From the IMG/VR virus record IMGVR_UViG_3300038853_000032: DNA of 64,000 nucleotides, one strand, 5' to 3'. Below the pieces are notes generated by a model. It had not been told where the DNA came from. It ran no database searches and was given only the letters and a program-made list of their open reading frames with translations. The translations under genes and the position numbers were made by a program. This DNA comes from an uncultured virus (IMG/VR IMGVR_UViG_3300038853_000032) (Duplodnaviria; Heunggongvirae; Uroviricota; Caudoviricetes). Below, piece after piece: positions 15,106 through 43,247 of the stretch; position 1 is the stretch's first letter, and every line of letters begins with the position of its first letter.

Positions 15106-15471
15106 TTAATCCTTATTTAAACTGTCAATAAACTTCTCTCGTATCTTTTTTCTTAATTCATGAAAAAAATTTCTCAAAGTATACTTATCATTGTTATCAA
15201 CATAACATTTAGGACGAAACTTTCGTTTATTAGTCTCAATGACTTCATAACTAAGTCCCTTTCTTTTAGCAAAAGCTATTGCTTTTTCTTTACTGATAAA
15301 ACGCAAGTGCTCCCCCACCTGTTTATTCACATCGTCGCACCCAGTCCACCCCATTAAAGGCTCAATATACTGAGGAGAAGAAAGGTTGTATTCAACTGTC
15401 CAATGCTTATTATGTTTTAAATCCGCTTGCATCACACTGCGAGCTCGTTGATATATACGCACGTCTTTCAC
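15106..15471 (-). CDS. Respiratory complex I accessory subunit, NDUFS4/ETC_C1_NDUFA4 family
   Basis: VRIYQRARSVMQ..W.VEY...EPLMGWTG..D...Q..LRF.SKE.AIAFA...G..Y. Confidence 0.85.
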   Translation of the reverse strand: MKDVRIYQRARSVMQADLKHNKHWTVEYNLSSPQYIEPLMGWTGCDDVNKQVGEHLRFISKEKAIAFAKRKGLSYEVIETNKRKFRPKCYVDNNDKYTLRNFFHELRKKIREKFIDSLNKD

Positions 15472-16343: not shown

Positions 16344-16417
16344 TGGAGCGGATAACCGAATTTGAATCGGTACTAAAAGCTTGGAAGGCTCTTGTGCTGC
16401 CATTACACCATATCCGC
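16344..16417 (-). tRNA. tRNA-Gly(TCC) with encoded CCA
   Basis: GCGGATA TGGTGTAATGGCAGCAC A AGAGC CTTCCAA GCTTT TAGT ACCGA TTCAAAT TCGGT TATCCGC TCCA. Confidence 0.95.
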
Positions 16418-17415: not shown

Positions 17416-17973
17416 TTATTTATAGATTCCAAAACTCAGTGTGATAGAATCCGTAGGATAATATGCTTTATGATTAGTATTTTTTGGAAGATAAACCCAA
17501 TCATTTGTGCCTAAAGAAATCCGGCGTTTTTTAAGTTTAATATCCTTTTTTCCTCGTAAACAGTATATCAAAACACCCATAGGATCTTGATGAAAATTAA
17601 AAGAAAAAGAATTTTTCTTTCCAAAATATATATGACAATCTACTTTTGAAGCACCAAAAGCTCGCTGTAAATTTTCACAAAATTTAATATAGTTATTATT
17701 ATAACTTTCTATATTATTAATTTTAACTAATGATTTTTCTTTTAAAAAACCATACAACTCTGCCACTGAGTGACAATGATGATTAACTAACGAACTATTT
17801 TGTGAAGAATCAATAAAAAATATAGACTCAGTACTAAAATAATTAGGATCTAATATCACATCCTCATAATAAATATCTAAAGACCTGTCAGGAATATAGG
17901 TAGCTTTACCAACTCTATTAACATTAGAAGCAATAGACATTAAAGCTAAAAAACTATTTTTAAAATCTTTCAT
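17416..17973 (-). CDS. JmjC/cupin oxygenase-like protein
   Basis: CHIYFG..SF.FHQDP..VLIY..RGKK...WVYLPK.T.HKA. Confidence 0.75.
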   Translation of the reverse strand: MKDFKNSFLALMSIASNVNRVGKATYIPDRSLDIYYEDVILDPNYFSTESIFFIDSSQNSSLVNHHCHSVAELYGFLKEKSLVKINNIESYNNNYIKFCENLQRAFGASKVDCHIYFGKKNSFSFNFHQDPMGVLIYCLRGKKDIKLKKRRISLGTNDWVYLPKNTNHKAYYPTDSITLSFGIYK

Positions 17974-18886
17974 TATACCAATCTAACAAATGCTTAAATC
18001 CATTACACGAATATGTTAAGTCTTTAACATCTCTCAAATGCTCAGATAAACACGAACCTAAATAATCACATTTAGAACAATACAAATTATTACTCACTCT
18101 TTCTTTTTCCACATCAGTCCACTCTAAATATTCTTCAAAACAATCAAACTCTAAAAAGTACTCGTTATCCTGTTTATCAAACTCTAAAGTAGCGAACTTG
18201 CCAGTAGGAGTTAAATAAACATGACTATCACTAAAGGCGCTCTTATAATAAGAACCGCTTTTGGTAATACTACCTTTAATTAACTTTTCATTAATAAATT
18301 CAAAATTTTTGGGAACCCCACTTGTAATCCACTTAATAACAAACTTTTCGTATTCTGTGTATAAAATATCTTGAGAATTAGCTTGACTAGTAGAATAGGG
18401 TTTAATTTCTACACTTTTAATAGCTGAACATAAGTTTAATTCACTGATCATTTCTTCTACGTTTTTTTTAAGTATACAACGAGAAGCTAAAATTAATACA
18501 GCTAAAGGTTTAGAAGAAAACATCATATTATTAAAAACTAATCTACGTTTTTCTCTGCAATCAAAATCATAACTAACTGTTAAATCAACCCCTTTCCTAA
18601 ATAAAACAGGAACCATTGCAGAAAAATTTGTAATAATATTAATAGAAGAGGAATACTGCTCTAACATAGGTAGCAAAGTATTTAAGTATCTAGAAGGTAA
18701 TAAAGCTATTTCTCCACCGTATAAATCTATATGCGTAATTTCTACCTGTTCAGATACTGACGCTAATCTACTATCAATAACAGTTAAAGGAGTAGTTAGC
18801 CTGTCTGATAACTGAGGTGATGTAAGATAACAAAACTTACATCTAAAATTACAATAATAAGTAGGATTCACACTAACAGTAAACAT
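17960..18886 (-). CDS. Radical SAM enzyme with C-terminal Cys cluster
   Basis: CNFRCKFC, YGGE; CSKCDYLGSC...C. Confidence 0.9.
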   Translation of the reverse strand: MFTVSVNPTYYCNFRCKFCYLTSPQLSDRLTTPLTVIDSRLASVSEQVEITHIDLYGGEIALLPSRYLNTLLPMLEQYSSSINIITNFSAMVPVLFRKGVDLTVSYDFDCREKRRLVFNNMMFSSKPLAVLILASRCILKKNVEEMISELNLCSAIKSVEIKPYSTSQANSQDILYTEYEKFVIKWITSGVPKNFEFINEKLIKGSITKSGSYYKSAFSDSHVYLTPTGKFATLEFDKQDNEYFLEFDCFEEYLEWTDVEKERVSNNLYCSKCDYLGSCLSEHLRDVKDLTYSCNGFKHLLDWYNERF

Positions 18887-19500
18887 TACTGAAAAATAAT
18901 CTCAGACAAAGGAACTGATGGTTTACGGGTAACAAAATTATAAGTCGCATCTACCCATAATTTTAAGCGTTTAGGTTGATAATCCCATATCTTTTTTCTT
19001 TCTCTGTTATTATCTAAAGTTCTAACACAAGACCACGAACAAGGTATATGGCTACACATACGGTGAGGGTCTAAAGGGTACATGGTAATATTAGTATAAT
19101 ACTTTTTAACAAGTTGGGAACGCAATATCTGTTTTTTATATAATTCGTAATATGAAGTTTTAGAATGGGCAGTAGCAAGGTTATTTTTTGAGTAGTTTTC
19201 TACACAACAACTGGGGTATCCTAATATTAAACCTATTTTCTCGTGATCATCGTTTTTCCAAGCCTCTCTAAAAATATCAAAAGAAATACTATAACTCACA
19301 AAGATGGCTGTATCCGATTTATCTTTAAGATAAAAGAGTGGAACGTGAAGTTTTTTACAAAAGTAGACAAAAAGAGGATTAAGAGCAAATCGTGCATCTA
19401 ATAAGCAAGCGGGTTTTTGCTTATTCCCAAACTGAATAAAATCTAAATAATCATGTTTTTTTAATAATAGGTATTTAAGTAAAAAAAGTTTTGGAAACAT
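18886..19500 (-). CDS. DUF483-like protein
   Basis: GLILGYPSCCVENY, HIPCSWSC. Confidence 0.6.
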   Translation of the reverse strand: MFPKLFLLKYLLLKKHDYLDFIQFGNKQKPACLLDARFALNPLFVYFCKKLHVPLFYLKDKSDTAIFVSYSISFDIFREAWKNDDHEKIGLILGYPSCCVENYSKNNLATAHSKTSYYELYKKQILRSQLVKKYYTNITMYPLDPHRMCSHIPCSWSCVRTLDNNRERKKIWDYQPKRLKLWVDATYNFVTRKPSVPLSEIIFQ

Positions 19501-19503
19501 TAT

Positions 19504-20214
19504 TTAATCAAATACCTCCGCGCCATGAATAAGAGCATTATTAATAAAATTATAAGAAAAACCGCAACCACACATTAAAACGTAACGGGAAGTATCTTTT
19601 TGAAAATAATCAAGTCCGTGATGTACAAAAAGAGGATTCATGTTATTTAAGATAATAACCTCATTAGGTTTAGGCTCTATTTCATATACCTCCTCAAAAA
19701 CAGCTTCTTTTGAAATCCTGTCAAAATACTCTTCGGGATAATAATGAGGAATTTGAGTGTTAGAAGAAGTAGTACACTTATCTACCTTGGCCACTCTAAA
19801 AATGCCATTAGGCAGTTCTCCTCCATAAACTAAAATTTGCATAAAAGAAGAATCAAAACCATCCCAATGCCAAGGTATAGAATTTTTTCCCAGAACTTTA
19901 TTTATCATAATATTATAATTATCAAAACTTCCGTATAAAGTTTTCCAAAAAGTAAACTCTTTTCTAGACTGAATAAGAGAAGATAGTAAATCATTATACC
20001 TTGTACAGTTTAAATAATAATCAGAAGTACGATGCGCTATAGGGCCATCCCAACACGGAGAAAAAATATTCTCTACTTTATCGTTTGCAACTTCAAGAGT
20101 ATAATCTTCTTCCTCCATCATTGACAAAAATTGGTTATACATAGTTGGTTCAATATCTAAAGTAGTAAAACCTTTATGAAAATAATCATCTAGTGAAAAC
20201 ATTACAATACGCAA
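19504..20214 (-). CDS. Fe(II)/2-oxoglutarate oxygenase-like
   Basis: PWHWDG...P..NEVIILNN.NP.FVH...RY. Confidence 0.7.
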   Translation of the reverse strand: MRIVMFSLDDYFHKGFTTLDIEPTMYNQFLSMMEEEDYTLEVANDKVENIFSPCWDGPIAHRTSDYYLNCTRYNDLLSSLIQSRKEFTFWKTLYGSFDNYNIMINKVLGKNSIPWHWDGFDSSFMQILVYGGELPNGIFRVAKVDKCTTSSNTQIPHYYPEEYFDRISKEAVFEEVYEIEPKPNEVIILNNMNPLFVHHGLDYFQKDTSRYVLMCGCGFSYNFINNALIHGAEVFD

Positions 20215-20217
20215 TCC

Positions 20218-20763
20218 TTAATCGTGCACAAAACCAAAACTTGTAACAATTCTATCAACATCCAATTTTAAATACTCTACTTTATGCTCCCACATAGAAG
20301 TATGATCTAAAATAACTACATCATATTTAGCAGGGTAAATACACCCCATCTCTTCTTTAGTAAATGCATTTCTTATTTGTAACGCTCCACCAGTTTTTTT
20401 ACTCATGTTACTAAAGTATAAAAGAACTGCTATATTAGAACCTTCTTTAGTATCACTGTGCCACACATCAGTTCCAGGATCTACGCCATTAACAAATCCA
20501 TCATTATCGCCTAAATAGTATTTACCAAAATGTTTCTTAATATATTTTTTACCTACGTACCGATGAGTTTTTACAAGAGAGTTTAATAACCTCTCATTTT
20601 TAGCACAAACTTTAAAACCATCGGTATCGACCCAGGTAATGTTAAAATTCTCTAAATACTTAAAAGATTCCTTATCATTAAAGCGTAAAAAACCTTTAGA
20701 CAAAAGAGGAGTATGATAACGTCTATGCCTAACTGCTTTCCACATTTCAAAATCTTCTAGCAT
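20218..20763 (-). CDS. Fe(II)/2-oxoglutarate oxygenase
   Basis: WHSD..EG...LLYF...GGAL...WEHKV...R. Confidence 0.8.
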   Translation of the reverse strand: MLEDFEMWKAVRHRRYHTPLLSKGFLRFNDKESFKYLENFNITWVDTDGFKVCAKNERLLNSLVKTHRYVGKKYIKKHFGKYYLGDNDGFVNGVDPGTDVWHSDTKEGSNIAVLLYFSNMSKKTGGALQIRNAFTKEEMGCIYPAKYDVVILDHTSMWEHKVEYLKLDVDRIVTSFGFVHD

Positions 20764-21818
20764 TAATTCAGTTTATTTATCCTCATAATATCGGAAGCTA
20801 TTCTCTTCATCTTAACACAGTGTTGCTCTACAACATCAGCCTCTTTTAAGTCTTTAACAGTTTTCCTACAACCATTACAAATACTAAACATAGGACAAGT
20901 AAAACACTCATTTTTTAGACTTACCAAATCTGGATTATCTTGAAGCGGAGTAAAAAACTGCCCTTCCATTTCTTTTTTAAAACTTATAGACTCGTCCTGA
21001 TCATCTCCAAAAGCACCGCAAGAATAGTAATCTCCGCTTGGATTAAAAGCTCTAATTCCCTCGTCGCAGTTGCGGCATTGAGGACAAGAAGTGTTTCCAA
21101 TACTGAGCCTTGTCATCATCTGTTTAGTGTTAAATTCCCAAGGAGCCAGTCCTTCGTTGTAAACTTCTAAATAAATTTCATAAATTTTAGATAACAAATA
21201 AGGATCTTTTTGATCTCCAGAAGCCATAGCGTAGTTTAATTTACACTCAACTCCAACTTTTTCTGATCTATTATAATTATGTAAAGTTCCCTGTGGCTCC
21301 TCAAAATTACTCATTTTTCGTGCCAACTCTACATTTTTAACAGCGAACTGCTCATTACCCTTAGTAATAACAGATATAAAGTCCGGACGGTATCCAACAT
21401 ATTCCAACATAGCATCGGAGCAATACCAAAAATCACTTTCAGTAAATAAACTATAATCTCCTTTAAGCCTGCCATCTCCATAATTAAAAGAAGTAGTAAC
21501 TCCTACTCGTTCATTATCAAACAATGATACCCACTTCTTAGGGTTTTTATAAAACGGCCACAGATTTGTAGTTAAAGCAATAGAAGTAGATAAATTATAA
21601 TTATCTAAATACTCAATAATTTTCCAGTAATAAGAAGGATCAACCATTAAAGGGTCTCCTCCATTAACAATAATTGTTTTAGTCTGCGGAAAACGTTTTA
21701 AAAAACGAAAGATATAATCATGAGATAATAAGTCGGATTTATGAGCAGCGATACGGGTAGAAGAACAAAAAGTGCATTTAAAATTACATAACTCCGTTGG
21801 CTTAATAATGAGTTCCAT
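20763..21818 (-). CDS. Radical SAM/SPASM-type enzyme
   Basis: IKPTELCNFKCTFC, NGGDP; CPQCRNC..YSCG..CFTCPMFSICNGC..C. Confidence 0.92.
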   Translation of the reverse strand: MELIIKPTELCNFKCTFCSSTRIAAHKSDLLSHDYIFRFLKRFPQTKTIIVNGGDPLMVDPSYYWKIIEYLDNYNLSTSIALTTNLWPFYKNPKKWVSLFDNERVGVTTSFNYGDGRLKGDYSLFTESDFWYCSDAMLEYVGYRPDFISVITKGNEQFAVKNVELARKMSNFEEPQGTLHNYNRSEKVGVECKLNYAMASGDQKDPYLLSKIYEIYLEVYNEGLAPWEFNTKQMMTRLSIGNTSCPQCRNCDEGIRAFNPSGDYYSCGAFGDDQDESISFKKEMEGQFFTPLQDNPDLVSLKNECFTCPMFSICNGCRKTVKDLKEADVVEQHCVKMKRIASDIMRINKLN

Positions 21819-22815
21819 GACTGTCCACGTAATCGTACACGTCTTTTAACCAACACTCTTCCTGGGTTCGAGTATCAGACAAGTCATGGCTCAAATAACA
21901 CCCTAAAGAACATCGGCTAAAATGATGACACTCTAAACAATTATAATCTTCCATAAACCTACGTTCCATATCATTCTTATTTCTTTTATATCCCTCATAA
22001 TAACCACCTAGTAAAATCGTACACATTCCCGACCTATTATTCGGTAAAATGGTGTAAGTATCTTGACAACTCATTCTTATTTTTTTACGAGAAAAGTAAT
22101 CTTTGATAGGTAGACAGTCAGGATAATTATCCACTAAGAACAACATTAATTTTTTTAAATCTACATCCTTAGGCATAAATTGTGTTGAATGATTTTCAGG
22201 TGTGTAATAATCAAAATAAATATCAAAATGAGTATATAAATAACCAAAAAAAGGTGTCTCATAAGACAAAAATTTATTAATAGCTGGTTTTGTCATTATA
22301 ACATTAACTGTTCGAATCCAGTGATTAAGTTCTCTTACGTTTTTCTTAAAAACACTAAAAGTTTCGTTATTAAACCGTGAGTGTGGATCATAAGAAGTCA
22401 TTAAATACACACGAGAATCTAATAAAAATAAACGAGCCATCAGCTCGTCCACTCGTTTATAATCCGAAAAAACTAAATTAGTAGTAAATGCGACTTCTAA
22501 AGATATTTCAAACCTGTGAGCCCACTCAAATAAAGAACTTACAAGATCATAGTAATCTTTAAATGTGCTTTTTTCTATTAAATCTGAAAATACCTCACCT
22601 CCCATCAAATGAACAGAAAATTGAGTACGACCAGCTTTTTTTAAATTAAGAATTGCTTTAATAATGTAATCTTTTTTTTCTTTTATATTGTAAAGACCTT
22701 CCCTAGAAGAGTGATCTTGAGGACAAAAGCGACACGCTAAGTTACATTGTTCAAATAGGGTAACAATAATTTCCCCGTTTATAGTTCTTTTTTCAGCGTA
22801 ATCTAATATCTCCAT
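21802..22815 (-). CDS. Radical SAM enzyme with C-terminal Cys cluster
   Basis: CNLACRFC, MGGE; CLECHHFSRCSLGC..C. Confidence 0.9.
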   Translation of the reverse strand: MEILDYAEKRTINGEIIVTLFEQCNLACRFCPQDHSSREGLYNIKEKKDYIIKAILNLKKAGRTQFSVHLMGGEVFSDLIEKSTFKDYYDLVSSLFEWAHRFEISLEVAFTTNLVFSDYKRVDELMARLFLLDSRVYLMTSYDPHSRFNNETFSVFKKNVRELNHWIRTVNVIMTKPAINKFLSYETPFFGYLYTHFDIYFDYYTPENHSTQFMPKDVDLKKLMLFLVDNYPDCLPIKDYFSRKKIRMSCQDTYTILPNNRSGMCTILLGGYYEGYKRNKNDMERRFMEDYNCLECHHFSRCSLGCYLSHDLSDTRTQEECWLKDVYDYVDSHGTHY

Positions 22816-23441
22816 TAGGGAGCGCGGTCCGTTGAAACAATATCCTTTTTAGATTCCCAGTCAACTATACAATTACATACAATTGCCCATCGAGTATGTT
22901 CTCCCAAATAACGAGAAACTTCGTGCCATATATAAGCAGGAGCTGCCACAAGGGTTCCACGAACTGGAACAATAGTTTTCGTTTTTGGACTACAAAAAGT
23001 AATTTGATTAATAAACTTAGGATCATGCAGAAGCAAATCTCCTCCCTGTCCTTGTACTACATCCAAATAAAAAACAGCAAACGCATCTACATCCGAATGA
23101 GAATGGGCGGGTTTATAATCAAACTTTTTCATAGGAGTAATGCGTGACAAAGAGTCAACAGACAAAGAGAAGCTTAAATTATGTCCATGTCGACGTCCCA
23201 ACTCACCAAAAGCGTCAGTAAACATAGCCTTAAGTTCTAATTGCTCTGGAGTACCTTCCTCAAAAACATTAGCATCAGCATCTCCTGCCTCCACATAATC
23301 AATTCCTTTTTCTGCCTTTAATAGCTCTAATTTAGCCTGCATTTGGTTAGCTAAATTAGTATACCAACTATCTTCCAAATCATACTCACGCCAAATAATG
23401 TGAGTTTCAAAAGCAAAAAATGACATATTTTTAATGTGCAT
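22815..23441 (-). CDS. Putative Fe(II)/2OG oxygenase (TIGR02466-like)
   Basis: PAHSH, VFYL...GGDLLLHDP, P.YIWHEV, R.AI..N. Confidence 0.75.
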   Translation of the reverse strand: MHIKNMSFFAFETHIIWREYDLEDSWYTNLANQMQAKLELLKAEKGIDYVEAGDADANVFEEGTPEQLELKAMFTDAFGELGRRHGHNLSFSLSVDSLSRITPMKKFDYKPAHSHSDVDAFAVFYLDVVQGQGGDLLLHDPKFINQITFCSPKTKTIVPVRGTLVAAPAYIWHEVSRYLGEHTRWAIVCNCIVDWESKKDIVSTDRAP

Positions 23442-24183
23442 CAGTGTAATCCTTTCCTAAGGCCTTAAGCATAGAAAGAAGAAAATTATGCTTAGTAGCA
23501 TAATAATAAAATAAATTTTTTCCATGAAACATATACTCTTCAAATTGCGGCTTAAAGTAATAAAGGGTTCCTAAAGGTTTTTGATAGTAATTATGAAAAA
23601 AGAAATCTAAAGAAAATAAATTAACTATACTATAACCCACATACTCCCTGTTAGTAACTATTTCTATCCCGTCAGTTAAAAATTTTTCATCATTTAATTC
23701 GGGTAAACATTTTTGTGCATAAATAGTACAAGAATCTAAAAAAGTTACCCAACGCGAAACAGTACTCGTATTTTGCCTAATATAAAGATCTGCTTCCGAA
23801 AGAGAAAAATAAGGATTAGGATAAGCATTCTCTATATCATATCCTTTATAACGAAATACTATAGAAGAAGCAGCTAAATTAAATACTGGAAGATTAACTA
23901 CTGCTGGTAAAGTCATATACTCATAAAGAAGCGATGACCTTTTTTCAAAATCTAAAGCTTTAGAAAAAGTTAAATCCGCAGGAACATCTAAGTTAGACAA
24001 GTAAACTAAAAGTTTTTTATCCTGCAATTTACTACAAGAGTAATCAATATGAAATGATAAGTCTTTATTTTCAAAATACTTTCTTAAATTTTCAATTTCT
24101 ATAGGGACTACACAATTTATAATATTACCAAGATCAGGAGTATCTATATTTAACACTATCTCCTTCCTCTCGAACCGTGACAA
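23431..24183 (-). CDS. Hypothetical protein coupled to the putative substrate gene
   Basis: 250 aa, overlaps the end of 24156-24746. Confidence 0.7.
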   Translation of the reverse strand: MSRFERKEIVLNIDTPDLGNIINCVVPIEIENLRKYFENKDLSFHIDYSCSKLQDKKLLVYLSNLDVPADLTFSKALDFEKRSSLLYEYMTLPAVVNLPVFNLAASSIVFRYKGYDIENAYPNPYFSLSEADLYIRQNTSTVSRWVTFLDSCTIYAQKCLPELNDEKFLTDGIEIVTNREYVGYSIVNLFSLDFFFHNYYQKPLGTLYYFKPQFEEYMFHGKNLFYYYATKHNFLLSMLKALGKDYTDAH

Positions 24184-24746
24184 CTAGTATGACAACTAGA
24201 ATGACAATAAAACTCTTGAACTGTTACAGCGTTATCTTTTAAAGAATTCCACTGATTATAAAGTGCTGTTGTAAAGTCATTAAAATTAGACGCATCAATT
24301 TCTTCATCAGTCTCAACGTCATCAGCTGCTGCTAAACTTGACAAAGTATTGGACTGTTCGTAAGTATTAGAACTTAAATGAGTAACGTTTGTTTCGTTTG
24401 AATCAATAGTGTCGTTATCTCGATACTGCTGTAAATTAACCTTGCGAATTTTTGTAAAAATAGAAACGTAATTAACTAAAACTGTAGCTAATTGTGCTGC
24501 TGTAATTTTAGAATCCGTAATTTTATCAGTTCCAGGAGTTCCTAAAGTACCACTTCCTAACCCAATCGCTCCTGTAGTAAGTGCCGCAGGAATGGCATTT
24601 TGCAGCGTTTGCCCAGTAGAATTACTCGGCCTGTTACCACTATCCCATACAATAGCACTCTCAATATTGTCTCTTACATTATCAAGAAAACTATTTACCA
24701 TTCGCTGTTTGGTTACAGCTTCACCACTTGAAGGAGTATCACTCAT
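24156..24746 (-). CDS. Putative radical SAM substrate protein with C-terminal (CHxS)3-RGRR tail
   Basis: Ends EFYCHSSCHTSCHGSRGRR; the rest is Thr/Ser/Asn/Ala-rich with no other Cys. Confidence 0.7.
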   Translation of the reverse strand: MSDTPSSGEAVTKQRMVNSFLDNVRDNIESAIVWDSGNRPSNSTGQTLQNAIPAALTTGAIGLGSGTLGTPGTDKITDSKITAAQLATVLVNYVSIFTKIRKVNLQQYRDNDTIDSNETNVTHLSSNTYEQSNTLSSLAAADDVETDEEIDASNFNDFTTALYNQWNSLKDNAVTVQEFYCHSSCHTSCHGSRGRR

Positions 24747-24758
24747 AATTATCTCCTA

Positions 24759-25061
24759 TTAACAGTTACGTTTAATTCTACGCAAAGCTTTTTTAGCGAA
24801 TTTTTCTGCGTATACACTATCGTGTATTACTTTATTAAACCTATCTTCTACACAATTTAAAAAAATCTTTTCTTCTCTACCAAATCTAAAGGTTTGAAAA
24901 GCACATTGTTTTATAATTGTTCTTGAATCAAAGCCATACGGCCAGGTGAATTTTCCAGTAATAGAGTCGATTCTAGAACTACAACTTTCTGGACTAAAAC
25001 TAAAAGTTGGCGTTGAAATCGTAAAAACCATTAAAATTGGTAGTATAATTTTATATTTCAT
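24759..25061 (-). CDS. Small exported protein with four Cys
   Basis: Signal-peptide-like N-terminus. Confidence 0.6.
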   Translation of the reverse strand: MKYKIILPILMVFTISTPTFSFSPESCSSRIDSITGKFTWPYGFDSRTIIKQCAFQTFRFGREEKIFLNCVEDRFNKVIHDSVYAEKFAKKALRRIKRNC

Positions 25062-25070
25062 TATAACTTT

Positions 25071-26111
25071 TTATGCTACTAACTTTTCAGTAGCGTTCCT
25101 TTCTTTTAACTTTACCATTAAACTCCTAGCTGAACCACATTGGTCGTCCTCCCAAGCCAATTGATGACAATCTCCACCACAATAAGCAAAAACAGGGCAC
25201 TCATAACACCTAGGATCACGAGAAAGCTCACACGCAATTATATGTTGTCTACTGGGATTATATAATAATTTTACTATATTATCATCGATATGTCCATAAA
25301 AATCTTCAGGCGCTGAATTTGGACACCCTCCAATAGTACCGTCAGCGTTGATAGTAAATATTTTTTGTTCACAGTTACGACAAAAAGTAGCTTCTTTAGT
25401 GCCATGAGTAAATTTTCTTAAAATCGAATTTAAAAATACATTATCAAACCAGCCAAAAGCATTATGATGTACCGTATCTTCGTACAGTTGAACAAACCAT
25501 CTATCTAAATCTTTATTAGAAGGTAAAATATGGTTGTTTTTTCTTGCACTCCCATTCACAGTAATACGCTCTAAATGCAAAGCATCCACATTTAAAGACT
25601 TAACAAATCGTAAAATTTCAATAGGTCTTTTAGCAATAACATCCTTACTTAACGAAACAAATAAAGAAACATAATTATCAGAGTTCTGAGTTAAAGTATT
25701 AATATTTTTTAACCATAAATCATATTGTTGAGAATTAGCAAACCTAATGGTAGGGTCCCAACTCGTCCCAATTTGTCCCCTTAAAGCTGTCTCAATAAAT
25801 TCTAATTTATCATCATCTAAATTAAAAACCAAATTTGTACAAACCCCATAGCTAGAGCTATCCCACAAATGATGAGTGCCTCTCCACACAGACCACATGT
25901 CACTAAGGGGTGCCAAAAACGGTTCTCCTCCATGAAACTCCACATGGATATCTTTAATCGTTGAAATATCATTTTTAATCCTTTTAAACCAATCTATCGT
26001 TTTTTCTGCATTAAAATATATTTTTCTCCCACGACTCCCAGAAGTAAAACAATGAGCACAATCTAATTGACATGTTTCCGTTGTTTTCAAATATACCATC
26101 AAGCTTCGCAT
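25071..26111 (-). CDS. Radical SAM/SPASM-type enzyme
   Basis: KTTETCQLDCAHC, FHGGEP; CRNC...GGCPN...CYECPVFAYCGGDC..C. Confidence 0.92.
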   Translation of the reverse strand: MRSLMVYLKTTETCQLDCAHCFTSGSRGRKIYFNAEKTIDWFKRIKNDISTIKDIHVEFHGGEPFLAPLSDMWSVWRGTHHLWDSSSYGVCTNLVFNLDDDKLEFIETALRGQIGTSWDPTIRFANSQQYDLWLKNINTLTQNSDNYVSLFVSLSKDVIAKRPIEILRFVKSLNVDALHLERITVNGSARKNNHILPSNKDLDRWFVQLYEDTVHHNAFGWFDNVFLNSILRKFTHGTKEATFCRNCEQKIFTINADGTIGGCPNSAPEDFYGHIDDNIVKLLYNPSRQHIIACELSRDPRCYECPVFAYCGGDCHQLAWEDDQCGSARSLMVKLKERNATEKLVA

Positions 26112-26758
26112 AATTGTTCAACCGCAGCCGTCACATCAGGAAATTCTGTTTTTATGATTTTCCAACATGCTTTTGCTACTTCAATATGCTCTTGCTGTGT
26201 TCCGTGCCCTGTTCTAAGCTGACAGTAATGAATCCAAGACCGTAAACTTCCAGCCATATAAAGTTTACTCACAGCTAACCCCTCCGGTAACAAAGCTCTT
26301 GCTTGTTCTTTAGCAATCCCCTTAAAAAGAGCTTGTTGGTAATATTTATCACTTTTTTCTTGTATAGTGGTTTGTACTTTATACCACCATTGTAATAAGT
26401 TTTCATCATTCGTTTTCACAGAATTTTGGCGATTCTTATGATCTTGTAACCTTGCTTCTCTTAAAGAAAAAGTTTTAACTTTTGCATACCGCTGAGAAAA
26501 TTCTTGAAAAGCAAAAGAACGATGACGTAAAATTTGTCGCGCAATATCCCGCGTAGTCTCAATTTCCATTGTTATATGAACCATCTCAAAAGGGCTCCAA
26601 TGCCCTTCCCTAATCATATAACTTAATAACTTAGACCCTGTTCCAAAATTACTTTGATTATTAGGGTTAGAAACTCTGGCACAATATGCTACTACATCAC
26701 TAGCACTATCCCCAAACTCATCTATTGGCCTCGTTACCCCAACAAGTTTAACTGTCAT
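26099..26758 (-). CDS. thyX: Flavin-dependent thymidylate synthase
   Basis: HWSPFE, QILRHRSFAFQEFSQRY, KEQARALLP, LRSWIHY. Confidence 0.97.
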   Translation of the reverse strand: MTVKLVGVTRPIDEFGDSASDVVAYCARVSNPNNQSNFGTGSKLLSYMIREGHWSPFEMVHITMEIETTRDIARQILRHRSFAFQEFSQRYAKVKTFSLREARLQDHKNRQNSVKTNDENLLQWWYKVQTTIQEKSDKYYQQALFKGIAKEQARALLPEGLAVSKLYMAGSLRSWIHYCQLRTGHGTQQEHIEVAKACWKIIKTEFPDVTAAVEQLCEA

Positions 26759-36973: not shown

Positions 36974-37002
36974 TTGACACTTGAATAGAAATAATATATA
37001 AT
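36974..37002 (+). promoter_or_regulatory. Perfect consensus sigma70 promoter at the strand switch
   Basis: TTGACA-17-TATAAT. Confidence 0.85.
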
Positions 37003-37009
37003 AAAAATT

Positions 37010-37189
37010 ATGTACATTACTAGACAAGATTTAAAAGTCGAGATCAGAGATTTACACGGCCAAATTCGAGAAGTAATTTCTGACTTTAATGGAACAATAC
37101 GCAGCATTAATGAAGATATTACCCAACTTCAAGAACGTGTTACTAATCTTGAATCTATAATAACAAATTTAAAAGGTTTTGGCAAATAA
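37010..37189 (+). CDS. Small coiled-coil protein, apparently leaderless
   Basis: MYITRQDLKVEIRDLHGQIREV...; ATG 7 nt after the -10. Confidence 0.6.
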   Translation: MYITRQDLKVEIRDLHGQIREVISDFNGTIRSINEDITQLQERVTNLESIITNLKGFGK

Positions 37190-37436
37190 AAAAACGATGT
37201 TTAAGCTAATCGGAATATATTTAGATTCAAATCAAAAAACTTATGTGGACTGGACATTAACTCAATGTACAAACATTAGTGATAGAGAATCCCAATTTTA
37301 TAAAGACAATCCTTTATGTGAAAAATACCAAATTTCACGATTTCCTGCTTTTATACTCTTAAAAAACAATGTGTTAACCCGTTTTATAATAGGAAAATAT
37401 CCTTATAAAACTCTTAAACGTAAACTCTTAATATGA
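37179..37436 (+). CDS. Hypothetical protein with a thioredoxin-like C-terminal pattern
   Basis: KYQISRFPAFILLKN; no CxxC. Confidence 0.45.
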   Translation: MANKKTMFKLIGIYLDSNQKTYVDWTLTQCTNISDRESQFYKDNPLCEKYQISRFPAFILLKNNVLTRFIIGKYPYKTLKRKLLI

Positions 37437-38005
37437 ATGTATTAATAGTTTTTGCACATCCTAATCCTCATAGCTTTTGTGCTGCTCTTAGAGACACTTT
37501 CATTGAGGGGGTTAGAACTAATGAACACACGGTTAAGATTATAGATCTCTATAGGGATGAATTTAATCCCGCTTCTCCAGGAGATAACCAAATCACGCCT
37601 ATTGTTAATAGATATCAAAAGAAACTTAAAAACTGTGATTATTTAGTTTTTATTTACCCTATTTGGTGGTTTAGAGCACCTGCGATTCTTGAAGGGTGGT
37701 TTGATAGAGTTTTTACTCCTGGGTTTGCTTTTAAATTTAAACACTTAGTAGGTAACTATGGACGTCCTATAGGATTGTTACCATGTAAACAAGCACTTAT
37801 AATTAACACATATGGATCACCAGCTATCGCTACTAAGTATTTTTATATGAATATCCCTTTTAGACGACTCAAACGTGGTATTCTTAAGATGTGCGGAGTA
37901 AAGAAAATTAAAAGATTTAATTGCTGGTCAGTTCCATTCGTCACAGACGAAAAAAGAAAAAAATATTTAGATAAAGTATTCAAGTTAGGTAAAAAAATAA
38001 AATGA
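37433..38005 (+). CDS. NAD(P)H:quinone oxidoreductase (flavodoxin_2)
   Basis: AHPNPHSF, YPIWWFRAPAILEGWFDRV. Confidence 0.9.
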   Translation: MNVLIVFAHPNPHSFCAALRDTFIEGVRTNEHTVKIIDLYRDEFNPASPGDNQITPIVNRYQKKLKNCDYLVFIYPIWWFRAPAILEGWFDRVFTPGFAFKFKHLVGNYGRPIGLLPCKQALIINTYGSPAIATKYFYMNIPFRRLKRGILKMCGVKKIKRFNCWSVPFVTDEKRKKYLDKVFKLGKKIK

Positions 38006-42652: not shown

Positions 42653-42930
42653 ATAACCCCATTCTTACAAAACTATGCTTAATCACCTTACTTTGTAGTT
42701 TCGTAGGAGAAACAGCGTTCTCTAAAGAAGCAACATCCCCCACTCTCACCACTCCCCAAGAAAAACCTATAAAATTTGACTTTAATAATTGGAAACACCG
42801 TACACTTGTTATAAAACACTTGAGTATTAGCGACTTTTATAATCTCGCCCCACATCCTAATTGGAAAATAGGTAGAGGAAAGTGTCGTAGTAAATGGACA
42901 AATCTTACTACTAATGAATGTCTAGAATAA
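42649..42930 (+). CDS. Hypothetical exported protein
   Basis: Signal peptide; GGAG SD. Confidence 0.55.
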   Translation: MNNPILTKLCLITLLCSFVGETAFSKEATSPTLTTPQEKPIKFDFNNWKHRTLVIKHLSISDFYNLAPHPNWKIGRGKCRSKWTNLTTNECLE

Positions 42931-42949
42931 ATAGTCTCGATGATAGAAG

Positions 42950-43192
42950 CAAAATAAGCAGACAGGACACGGGGGCAGTACCCGTCACCTCCACCACCAG
43001 TATTACAAAAAGTTTCATAGGGGGTGAATTAGGATCGACTGATGTAGTAAAAGCAACTGGAGAGACAGGTGAGCAAGCAACCTAAACTGCAAGAAACTTA
43101 TAAATGCCAACGATAATGAGGCATTTGAGGAATATGCTTTAGCAGCTTAATTTTCTCGGGGTTCGGAGGCACCTGGCAACAGAAGCCTCCAT
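42950..43192 (+). ncRNA. ssrA: Circularly permuted (two-piece) tmRNA
   Basis: Acceptor piece GGACACGGGGGCAGTACCCGTCACCTCCACCA (ends 42996) precedes 5' GGGGGTGAATTAGGATCGAC (43020); G3:U70 pair; tag 43106-43150 ANDNEAFEEYALAA*. The 5' boundary is approximate. Confidence 0.92.
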
Positions 43193-43221
43193 CTCATACA
43201 CTAAGAATATATCTTATACAT

Positions 43222-43247
43222 GGGGTCCTTTGGACCTCCTTTTTTTT
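43222..43247 (+). terminator. Terminator after tmRNA
   Basis: GGGGTCC-TTT-GGACCTC plus T tract. Confidence 0.7.

Follow-up and report, generated by a model that had tools for sequence, protein, structure and literature searches.

Genes at the locus

We analyzed a stretch of 64,000 nucleotides from an uncultured virus (IMG/VR record IMGVR_UViG_3300038853_000032; Duplodnaviria, Heunggongvirae, Uroviricota, Caudoviricetes), termed the window in what follows. Its minus strand carries, at 17416-26111, a packed operon for four radical S-adenosylmethionine (rSAM) enzymes, several Fe(II) oxygenases and a 196-aa protein that ends in a short run of Cys-His repeats. We call this C-terminus the tail and the protein bearing it the tail protein; the organelle of the virion is always called the phage tail. 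Our subject is the partnership of this tail with the enzymes, which recurs across phages, and the reading that the enzymes modify it.

The operon is a run of thirteen open reading frames (ORFs), counting the upstream thyX, whose neighbors either overlap by 1-17 nt or stand 3-12 nt apart. A preliminary description, made from the sequence alone, had listed a packed minus-strand run with thyX directly upstream, and every gene that it named is indeed there: the four rSAM proteins with their CxxxCxxC motif, three 2-oxoglutarate (2OG)-Fe(II) oxygenases (the third recognized by hhalign and a conserved motif), a JmjC/cupin protein and a DUF483-like protein. Its statement that the 196-aa protein confines its cysteines to the C-terminus also holds, there being three Cys in total, all within the last 16 residues. 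From upstream to downstream the features are:

26099-26758, minus strand: thyX, directly upstream neighbor of rSAM_A
25071-26111, minus strand: rSAM_A, 346 aa, with CxxxCxxC and a full SPASM domain; phrog_1802, E 4.6e-63
24759-25061, minus strand: 100-aa protein with a hydrophobic N-terminus, between rSAM_A and the tail gene
24156-24746, minus strand: tail protein, 196 aa, proposed substrate; its C-terminus matches phrog_35144
24159-24206, minus strand: the tail itself, CHSSCHTSCHGSRGRR, followed by the stop codon; three units of Cys-His-x-x plus R-G-R-R
23431-24183, minus strand: p20767 (phrog_20767, E 2e-54), fold not recognized
22815-23441, minus strand: 2OG-Fe(II) oxygenase, 208 aa, accessory; PF13759, 26.3 bits; phrog_81
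21802-22815, minus strand: rSAM_B, 337 aa, with a 7-Cys SPASM-like C-terminus; phrog_1802, E 2.4e-37
20763-21818, minus strand: rSAM_C, 351 aa, with an 8-Cys SPASM-like C-terminus; PF04055, 30.5 bits; phrog_1802, E 5.5e-52
20218-20763, minus strand: 2OG-Fe(II) oxygenase, 181 aa, accessory; PF13640, 26.3 bits
19504-20214, minus strand: 236-aa protein, probably a third 2OG-Fe(II) oxygenase, accessory; hhalign comparison with the group of the 181-aa oxygenase
18886-19500, minus strand: DUF483-like protein, 204 aa; PF04467, 27.6 bits (cut-off 25)
17960-18886, minus strand: rSAM_D, 308 aa, with a short 4-Cys C-terminal cluster; phrog_1802, E 1.4e-34
17416-17973, minus strand: JmjC-like cupin Fe(II) oxygenase, 185 aa, core; PF08007, 27.0 bits; phrog_8014, E 1.9e-19

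Tail and enzymes occur together across phages

A homolog search of the protein collection gave 60 relatives of the tail protein, 53 of them with the tail; the remaining seven either fall short of the query in length (110-184 aa) or diverge before reaching its end, and the contigs of six of them are below 4 kb. This word-seeded search and our first scan of 80 IMG/VR loci (designated by L numbers below) both retrieve through the tail. Such retrieval is biased, and three tests free of the bias were therefore run.

The first starts from an enzyme. Loci were fetched with an rSAM_A profile (the best 80 of 367 relatives), of which 72 were testable, having an rSAM_A ORF with at least 1,200 nt downstream of it. 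An ORF ending CH..CH..C[HNY]..R.RR starts at most 2.5 kb downstream of rSAM_A in 69 of the 72, and for 59 of these 69 the distance is ~100 nt or less. The three loci that lack it are one Hint-fused variant and two with just 1.2-1.4 kb of flank.

The second starts from the body of the tail protein. An exhaustive phmmer search with residues 1-180 against 1.84 billion representatives gave 26 matches. Of these, 19 are full-length (181-228 aa), and every one ends in a Cys/His-rich segment; 17 of the 19 also have an R-x-R-R-type terminus; the exceptions are P0148, which ends ...CHGSI, and P0154, which continues into a Gly-rich extension. The most degenerate tail among the body matches reads ...CHNYSQHINHSNRGRR.

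The third uses cultured phages found through homology to rSAM_A or p20767, for which tblastn gave 16 and 15 phage records, respectively. The carriers are Agrobacterium phage Atu_ph07, Sinorhizobium phage Phosso, the Ralstonia/Burkholderia RSL2/RSF1/FLC group and Pseudomonas phage pPa_SNUABM_DT01. In each of four cultured-phage genomes (224-490 kb) the back-translated tail pattern occurs exactly once, and a reversed pattern, used as a control in the same four genomes, occurs nowhere. The gene with the match is the syntenic one in 4/4 phages: Atu_ph07 gp170 (296 aa) ends FCHSSCHASCHNSRSRR; RSL2 ORF068 (186 aa) ends VCHSSCHTSCHGSRGRR, its last 16 residues being the same as those of the window; the DT01 protein ends ICHTSCHTSCHSARGRR; and the Phosso protein ends YCHTSCHASCHSSRSRR. 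Direct searches gave no match, either by tblastn of the tail protein, or of a tail protein of the short class described below, against 50,697 phage records, or by Megablast of the whole region, probably because the low-complexity filter and the diverged body hide homologs.

The preliminary description had made its case depend on a tail that is conserved and co-located with the enzymes in homologous loci. Both are borne out by the 69 of 72 loci fetched without reference to the tail, and the tail is far more conserved than the body that precedes it.

Gene order is likewise conserved, recurring as cupin, rSAM_A, tail protein, p20767, rSAM_B, (2OG), rSAM_C, (2OG), rSAM_D. The seven genes other than the bracketed oxygenases form a core that is complete in 40 of the 80 tail-fetched loci; among 11 incomplete loci of the long form, eight are cut by contig ends and three are variants (L034, L041, L074). 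The cupin gene comes first in most loci and last, at the far end, in the window. Carriers comprise jumbo phages of Agrobacterium, Sinorhizobium, Ralstonia, Burkholderia and Pseudomonas, together with uncultured phages on contigs of up to 480 kb. A search of one genome for each of ~185,000 prokaryote species gave only nine loci, all metagenome-derived (labeled as metagenome-assembled genome (MAG), 'uncultured' or bin), so that the system is essentially phage-borne. Four of the nine lie in Bdellovibrionota MAGs (L087, L089 and others), on contigs of up to 247 kb, which may be jumbo-phage sequences binned together with a host or else integrated elements.

The tail motif and its variants

The tail motif occurs once in the six-frame translation of the window. 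An alignment of 26 homologs has invariant C, H, C, H, C, H, S, R, R and R, with ~25-30% identity in the body; across relatives the body is diverged and ~165-290 aa long, and precedes a nearly fixed C-terminus. Among 130 unique tails, a set whose manner of choice itself partly imposes Cys, Arg and the first two His, Cys is found at all three positions in 130/130 and His in 130, 130 and 129. The fourth residue of the unit is Ser in 123, 112 and 115 tails and otherwise Ala, Asn or Asp, and Gly14 is present in 126/130. Because Ser is replaceable while Cys and His are near-constant, the fixed repeat unit is Cys-His and not His-x-Ser, which amends the (CHxS)3 formula of the preliminary description. 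Nor is the fixed unit an aromatic-x-x motif.

AlphaFold2 (AF2) models the tail protein as a compact globular alpha/beta body (pLDDT 70.7, pTM 0.69). Foldseek found nothing in the PDB at E <= 0.001, and the best Z in a wide VIA-align search was 4.1.

Variants differ in what follows the repeats. In L034 four repeats run into a Peptidase_S74 'chaperone of endosialidase' domain (PF13884, 44.8 bits, cut-off 22), a fusion present in 1 of the 80 tail-fetched loci, and this C-terminal part matches the ends of many long-tail-fiber and baseplate proteins. Peptidase_S74 is a self-cleaving trimerization module of phage fibers and spikes, and by its domain content the fusion points to a trimeric, fiber-like assembly. 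A close relative (70% identity) at L008:9992-11239, the same contig as L096, has four Cys-His repeats and no RGRR; its repeats lead into two Hint/intein-like modules in succession, which extend past the end of the contig. With a self-cleaving domain after the repeats in both cases, the mature protein would again end near them. The array itself is expanded about four-fold in L033:9977-10672, to ~14 Cys-His units with NV(P)V spacers. L050:9962-11336 encodes two tandem tail proteins ending ...CHSSCHSNVTCYNSRGRR, and L036:9974-10522 ends ...CHTSCHSNCNCNRGRR.

A short form, found in 29 of the 80 loci, consists of proteins of 126-140 aa with the same tail, arranged as tandem pairs in 25 of the 29. 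Within 10 kb, its loci have rSAM-like ORFs with a median number of 6 and a maximum of 8. At L055:9683-20126 a short-form pair directly follows two collagen-like tail-fiber genes and is itself followed by five CxxxCxxC-bearing phrog_31457 paralogs, with two phrog_1802 rSAMs on the opposite strand. This gene arrangement suggests that the modified tail may be a modular tip for fibers or adhesins.

Association with the virion

A homolog of the tail protein is listed in a published virion proteome, that of Atu_ph07 (PMC6102473, Table S5): Gp170, 31.89 kDa, with 8 unique peptides and 35.16% coverage. The tail-bearing Atu_ph07 ORF has a computed mass of 31.89 kDa, and the masses of gp176 and gp177 agree too, so that the gene numbering is the same as in PMC6102473. 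Neither the neighboring enzymes nor p20767 (gp164-169 and gp171-175) appear among the rows of Table S5 from gp57 on. For this homolog, the virion association that the preliminary description had put forward as possible is thus on record, as far as those rows go.

Its behavior in the gel was unusual. Gp170 was detected across gel fragments 1-9, with its maximum in fragment 1, the top slice. Proteins of 87-139 kDa have their peak there, and the 43.5-kDa capsid protein has its own in fragment 6. The table lists 16 proteins of 29-33 kDa; 14 of these peak in fragments 7-13 and the other two, gp170 and gp616 (one peptide), in fragment 1 (PMC6102473). On the published rows covered here, the homolog is virion-associated and runs as a high-mass species stable to heat and sodium dodecyl sulfate.

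Structural genes also lie beside the cluster in several other phages. Upstream of it there are virion structural genes in Atu_ph07 and Phosso; the upstream genes of RSL2 include one for baseplate assembly and one for a virion structural protein, and those of DT01 include one for a central spike; in L034 the cluster comes right after two tail or virion structural genes.

A structural protein of this kind, possibly trimeric, might carry the tail as an unmodified metal or Fe-S site or as a metallocofactor scaffold, with the rSAM enzymes acting elsewhere or assembling the cluster. What the tail keeps invariant is precisely a set of metal ligands, Cys and His, at a period of 4, and a short helix that AF2 places at residues 183-189 with low confidence would align the Cys along one face. 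The trimerizing S74 fusion of L034 suggests that three chains could pool their ligands; in trimeric phage fiber and spike tips, for example that of T4 gp37, His motifs bind iron; and disulfides or metal could account for the odd gel migration. We nonetheless consider this account unlikely. It leaves unexplained why four rSAMs, a cupin and p20767 accompany the tail in fixed order in 40/80 loci and 4/4 cultured phages, and why the nearest solved relatives of the enzymes are SPASM enzymes that modify peptides or proteins; moreover, no alternative substrate candidate is conserved in the cluster.

The radical SAM enzymes

The four rSAM proteins are the only rSAM-like ORFs within the window, and all match family phrog_1802 (E 4.6e-63 to 1.4e-34). 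They fall into four orthogroups, distinct yet mutually related (hhalign 96-99.5%). CxxxCxxC is present in 57/57 full-length orthologs of rSAM_A, 72/72 of B, 53/53 of C and 56/57 of D (238/239 together). C-terminal cysteines are 100% conserved as well, eight in A, seven in B, eight in C and four in D, the last being C270, C273, C279 and C294. Where the preliminary description saw two SPASM proteins and two with shorter Cys clusters, A, B and C are instead all SPASM-like and D alone has the short cluster, whose four Cys make it twitch-like. With motif and auxiliary cysteines conserved throughout the orthologs, the enzymes look active.

The profile searches that had been proposed as a check gave a mixed outcome. 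For PF04055 (cut-off 29.5 bits) rSAM_C passes at 30.5, and the other three score 18.6-24.6, below the cut-off; for the SPASM model TIGR04085 (cut-off 27 bits) rSAM_A passes at 34.3, and rSAM_C falls short at 22.1. Taken together, motifs, conserved cysteines and profile scores place the proteins in the Radical SAM superfamily and in its SPASM/twitch subfamily.

A search of the PDB with the single rSAM_A sequence returned no match, so that a profile was needed to reach relatives. The rSAM_A profile matches 5wgg (E 5.3e-8), 8vpo, ChlB, anSME, MoaA and YydG, the nearest four at E 5e-8 to 1e-6; the anSME structure 4k37 aligns over its full length (E 1.1e-6). Entry 5wgg, labeled in the database only as 'Radical SAM domain protein', we take to be CteB. 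By these alignments, the nearest solved relatives of rSAM_A are enzymes that act on peptides or proteins. The best NCBIfam matches are anSME, PapB, DynA, CbpB, DarE and HxsB, every one far below its equivalog cut-off.

The N-terminal 80-100 residues weakly resemble viperins. The best score against the viperin model NF038283 (cut-off 180 bits) is 35.9, for residues 10-94 of rSAM_D; viperin membership was rejected, since the match covers only the common Fe-S motif region and scores far below the cut-off. PADLOC likewise assigned no protein to a defense system, its pVip-like matches falling on the same N-terminal rSAM stretch only. CxxxCxxC begins at residues 12-24 in each of the four enzymes, too near the start for an N-terminal domain of the kind known as the RRE (the recognition element of RiPPs, peptides that are made by the ribosome and modified after translation).

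Oxygenases and other partners

The cupin matches PF08007 (JmjC_2) at 27.0 bits against a cut-off of 22, with only residues 154-183 aligned. Its triad H128-x-D130...H168 is 100% conserved in 43 orthologs, and score and facial triad together assign it to the JmjC/cupin proteins. We take PF08007 to be a family of ribosomal-protein Arg and His hydroxylases.

The 181-aa and 208-aa 2OG oxygenases score 26.3 bits each, just under the Pfam cut-off of 27 (PF13640 and PF13759, respectively). Orthologs keep H102-x-D104...H160...R171 in the former and H113, H115, D140...H173...R184 in the latter. The 236-aa protein has no Pfam, PHROG or NCBIfam match; compared with the group of the 181-aa oxygenase it gives an hhalign probability of 88.6% (E 2.6e-6) and keeps H116-x-D118...H198...R210, and by this likeness it is probably a third 2OG oxygenase. 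The 2OG enzymes, which are of several kinds across loci, are thus accessory and not core members, homologs of the window's own three being present in 20 of the 40 complete loci.

p20767 is 241 aa long with a start at ~24156, or 250 aa from a TTG at 24183. Its 74 homologs share no conserved C, H, D or E. The AF2 model is good (pLDDT 87.5, pTM 0.84), and no known fold was recognized in it: Foldseek returned nothing from the PDB, a wide VIA-align search gave no Z above 4.6, a few rSAM barrels scoring Z ~3, and the ESM Atlas gave no usable match. The notion of a dead or degenerate rSAM paralog was rejected (hhalign probability <1% against all four rSAM groups). A predicted complex of the tail protein with p20767 scored 0.00, which says nothing either way.

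The remaining partners vary among loci. The 100-aa protein has no significant match in Pfam, PHROG or NCBIfam and phmmer homologs in L005-L007 only, which are the window's own phage, so it appears to be a lineage-specific insertion outside the conserved core. Homologs of the DUF483-like protein were found by phmmer in L005 and L006 only, again the phage lineage of the window. Accessory genes elsewhere encode an uncharacterized 355-412-aa protein (34 loci) and an rSAM with a B12-binding domain (14 loci), and two loci have a weak, sub-threshold GNAT-like match.

Some neighbors belong to nucleotide metabolism. thyX adjoins the cluster in the clade of the window and lies on the opposite strand in L010 and L011, and the RSL2 cluster has two dihydrofolate reductase (DHFR) genes between rSAM_B and rSAM_C (L002:15030-16179; PF00186, E 2.1e-48 and 1.2e-17). 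A link to one-carbon metabolism is possible but weak. These genes, and the faintly viperin-like N-termini of the rSAMs, are what speaks for the alternative already named in the preliminary description, that the operon is a pathway for hypermodification of nucleotides or DNA and the tail protein is incidental or regulatory. We give this very little credence: thyX stands beside the cluster in only 7/80 loci, three of the seven being the window's own phage; the viperin matches are limited to the Fe-S motif region (35.9 versus 180 bits); no glycosylase, kinase, transferase or DNA-binding component is conserved; and the single invariant partner that is not an enzyme is the tail protein.

The B12-binding rSAM bears on another alternative, a classical RiPP, in which the body would be a long leader and the modified 16-residue tail would be released as a bioactive peptide (metallophore, toxin or signal) acting on host or competitors. 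Multi-enzyme tailoring that includes such an rSAM is typical of RiPP clusters, and a core motif at the extreme C-terminus is like that of most RiPP precursors. In the window the operon is also followed by a gene for an SprT-like metalloprotease (23.6 bits, below the cut-off of 25.6). This alternative is nevertheless improbable in our estimation. No protease or exporter is conserved in the clusters, SprT-like homologs being found in 3/80 loci, two of which are the window's own phage; the body itself was detected in virions, by eight peptides in the published Atu_ph07 table; variants place self-cleaving domains after the repeats and not before them; and a body of 165-290 aa is far bigger than known leaders.

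Proposed pathway

The reading that we prefer, and hold to be rather probable, is that the operon is a phage-borne protein-maturation cassette whose enzymes introduce crosslinks and hydroxyl groups into the Cys/His tail of a virion protein. The overall interpretation of the preliminary description thus receives partial support, from the coupling of tail and enzymes and from the virion association of one homolog; the tail chemistry itself, crosslinks included, we infer purely from the nearest relatives of the rSAMs.

Under this reading the body of the tail protein would serve as a docking domain. p20767 would be an adaptor or chaperone; an adaptor role may be supposed because the enzymes have no N-terminal recognition domain. 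The SPASM-type enzymes would abstract hydrogen atoms in the tail, linking carbons to the three Cys sulfurs and/or to His imidazoles. Cys links would be thioether rings, after the chemistry of SCIFF peptides, ranthipeptides and CrpC, and His links would follow HaaB and HtkB. The four paralogs might divide sites or reaction types between them. The cupin and the accessory 2OG oxygenases would hydroxylate tail residues, with His and Arg as likely targets given the presumed activity of PF08007 on ribosomal proteins. The product would then enter the virion, where the homolog was found, and the enzymes would stay out. It might serve as a component of the phage tail or baseplate, its modified Cys/His tail with the basic end forming a rigid tip, possibly metal-binding or covalently linked.

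A more specific version is that several unrelated phage lineages forge a covalently crosslinked, possibly metal-binding Cys/His tip on a virion protein associated with the phage tail or baseplate. We offer this only tentatively, as a possibility short of an even chance. The top-of-gel migration of gp170 would on this version reflect covalent linkage of the protein to itself or to other virion proteins.

Apart from the ligand-like makeup of the tail discussed above, several observations weigh against a maturation cassette for a virion protein. The Atu_ph07 loading buffer as described has no reductant (PMC6102473), and hence disulfide oligomers through the three Cys could explain migration at the top of the gel. 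The preparation was purified with polyethylene glycol, and the table also lists a RecA-like protein, ribonucleotide reductase and topoisomerase (PMC6102473); with such non-structural proteins present, finding gp170 there is no proof of a structural role. As published, the 35% coverage of gp170 is silent on whether the tail peptide was detected. The monomer model of the tail protein, of moderate confidence, is globular and not fiber-like. Around the operon in the window lie metabolic genes and no structural genes. The rSAMs are only distantly related to characterized enzymes (E ~1e-7, with all equivalog cut-offs missed). Finally, no RRE-type recognition domain was found, there being no PqqD/RRE Pfam match among the operon proteins.

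Other features of the window

The rest of the window includes genes for peptide deformylase, Hsp20, Fpg, transaldolase, spanin-like lysis proteins and a ~20-kb sugar-nucleotide/glycosyltransferase operon. With these the window resembles a section of a large phage genome that is well stocked with auxiliary genes. The sugar operon (43280-64000, plus strand) has more than 20 sugar-nucleotide and glycan genes over ~20 kb, a very large glycan pathway for a phage. It encodes methyltransferases, a GT9-like and another glycosyltransferase, an RpiB-cytidylyltransferase fusion, class II aldolase, PfkB kinase and transaldolase, as well as a DegT aminotransferase, hexapeptide acyltransferase, C-methyltransferase, pyridoxal phosphate-dependent decarboxylase, GDP-mannose 4,6-dehydratase, epimerase and 2OG oxygenase.

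ARAGORN reports an asterisk-flagged transfer-messenger RNA (tmRNA) gene at 42903-43241 (plus strand) with the tag peptide ANDNEAFEEYALAA, just after a GC-rich patch at 40-42 kb (GC 0.47 versus ~0.33), and a tRNA-Gly(TCC) gene at 16344-16417 (minus strand). A 121-aa protein of the PF04800 NDUFS4 family (E 7.5e-26), unusual in a phage, is encoded at 15106-15471 (minus strand). At ~37000-38000 coding strand and GC skew both flip, from minus-strand to plus-strand genes; the site marks divergent transcription and may also be a replication landmark.

Significance

Maturation of ribosomal products by rSAM/SPASM enzymes is known from bacterial and archaeal peptides and a few proteins. What would be new here is such maturation by a phage, with four paralogs, on a virion protein and at a new Cys-His motif. 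To our knowledge, the post-translational modifications known in virions are autocatalytic crosslinks, proteolysis and simple group transfers. The proposed reading, if true, would add radical chemistry to phage assembly and would devote a four-rSAM cassette to one virion protein; a crosslinked tip, if that version holds, would give the first case of a radical crosslink put into a virus particle by enzymes. For enzymology the system offers a compact substrate motif with four diverged SPASM/twitch enzymes, and cultured carriers that grow on laboratory hosts are on hand in Atu_ph07 and Phosso. The many 'auxiliary metabolic' rSAM and 2OG genes of some large phages, so far listed simply as accessory in the parts of the reports drawn on here (PMC8066314, PMC11898562, PMC5332604), would also be explained.

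Comparison with known systems

In the passages available, papers on the cultured carriers list cupin, rSAM and 2OG genes merely as accessory (PMC8066314, PMC11898562), and a marine virome T4-like genome with 12 rSAM genes is read in terms of Fe-S metabolism (PMC5332604). Campylobacter phage CP220 is described, in the portion of its report used here, as carrying 11 rSAM genes (PMC2853527). It was rejected as a carrier and is unrelated: the tail pattern has 0 matches in the 177.5 kb of its genome, and the lists of rSAM homologs do not include it. The full string SCHGSRGRR has 0 occurrences in the literature searched, and among the matches listed shorter strings are found only inside German words; the matches listed on phage rSAM/RiPP systems and virion modification include no description of this phage system.

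Among known enzymes, the maturases of SCIFF peptides and ranthipeptides (CteB, PapB) and anSME are the nearest solved or curated relatives of rSAM_A (TIGR03942, E 1.2e-12; PapB, E 3.5e-11). Their target is Cys, in C-terminal Cys-rich peptides or within a motif of a protein. Their substrate motif differs from the tail, and the phage rSAMs lack the N-terminal RRE domain. Membership was rejected for anSME (TIGR03942, rSAM_A 47.6 versus 349.45 bits), for SCIFF (TIGR03974, 21.8 versus 425) and for PapB (NF047865, rSAM_A 42.9 versus 340), these equivalog cut-offs being missed at least 7-fold.

The triceptide enzymes HaaB and HtkB crosslink His C2 to a side-chain beta carbon in a three-residue motif, according to the part of the report consulted (PMC11499958). 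The tail holds three H-x-S/A/N triplets and is comparable in this respect; however, no specific similarity between the enzymes was detected, the tail Cys is invariant whereas the third residue of the triplet is not, and the HaaB and HtkB substrates are short peptides.

CrpC of Methanococcus voltae is a SPASM rSAM that installs ranthionine thioethers on the Cys-rich protein CrpA, as the available text has it (PMC13692751). Set side by side with the phage system by description, it likewise acts on a neighboring full-size Cys protein and not on a short peptide. CrpC is, though, a single enzyme with its own RRE and CrpA is Cys-rich throughout, whereas the phage has four RRE-less paralogs and three tail Cys. 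On the structural side, trimeric phage fibers and spikes with a C-terminal Peptidase_S74 domain resemble L034, where that domain directly follows the Cys-His repeats; the window protein differs in ending RGRR without it and in its predicted globular body.

The closest named system is HXS, a bacterial anti-phage defense. As far as the consulted part of its description goes, the rSAMs HxsB and HxsC act with HxsD to mature HxsA, which has five His-Xaa-Ser repeats of basic character; the mass on SHRSS rises by 8 Da, and the product acts in the periplasm to block the entry of phage DNA (PMC13128918). HXS and the phage cassette share more than one rSAM and a small or uncharacterized partner for a full-size protein with basic, short, His-containing tandem repeats, and in HXS the modification maps to the His/Ser motif. 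There is weak likeness at the level of families too, of rSAM_A to HxsB (E 6.6e-10) and of rSAM_C to HxsC (E 2e-6). All tests of membership failed, however: rSAM_A scores 38.3 against 370 bits for HxsB (TIGR03978), rSAM_C 26.9 and rSAM_B 12.6 against 267.9 for HxsC (TIGR03977), and no operon protein matches the NCBIfam models of HxsA or HxsD at E <= 0.1 or has a Pfam peptidoglycan-binding domain. A side observation concerns Leptospira phage vB_LnoZ_CZ214-LE1 (KF114877.1, 80210-81220), which has a weak rSAM_A match (24.9% identity, E 8e-7) annotated HxsB; this phage or plasmid-like element may carry a bacterial HXS system.

The differences extend to substrate and setting. The phage system fixes Cys as well as His, whereas the five HxsA repeats as described involve no Cys; its repeats stand at the exact C-terminus; it employs four rSAMs and a cupin; and it is phage-encoded with a product that goes into virions, whereas HXS is by that account a host defense in the periplasm. 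Judged from family-level likeness and gene layout, the phage cassette is broadly similar to HXS in its working without being a member of it. As a mirror image of HXS, in which an rSAM-matured His-repeat protein of the host blocks DNA entry, it raises the question of whether related envelope chemistry is used on both sides.

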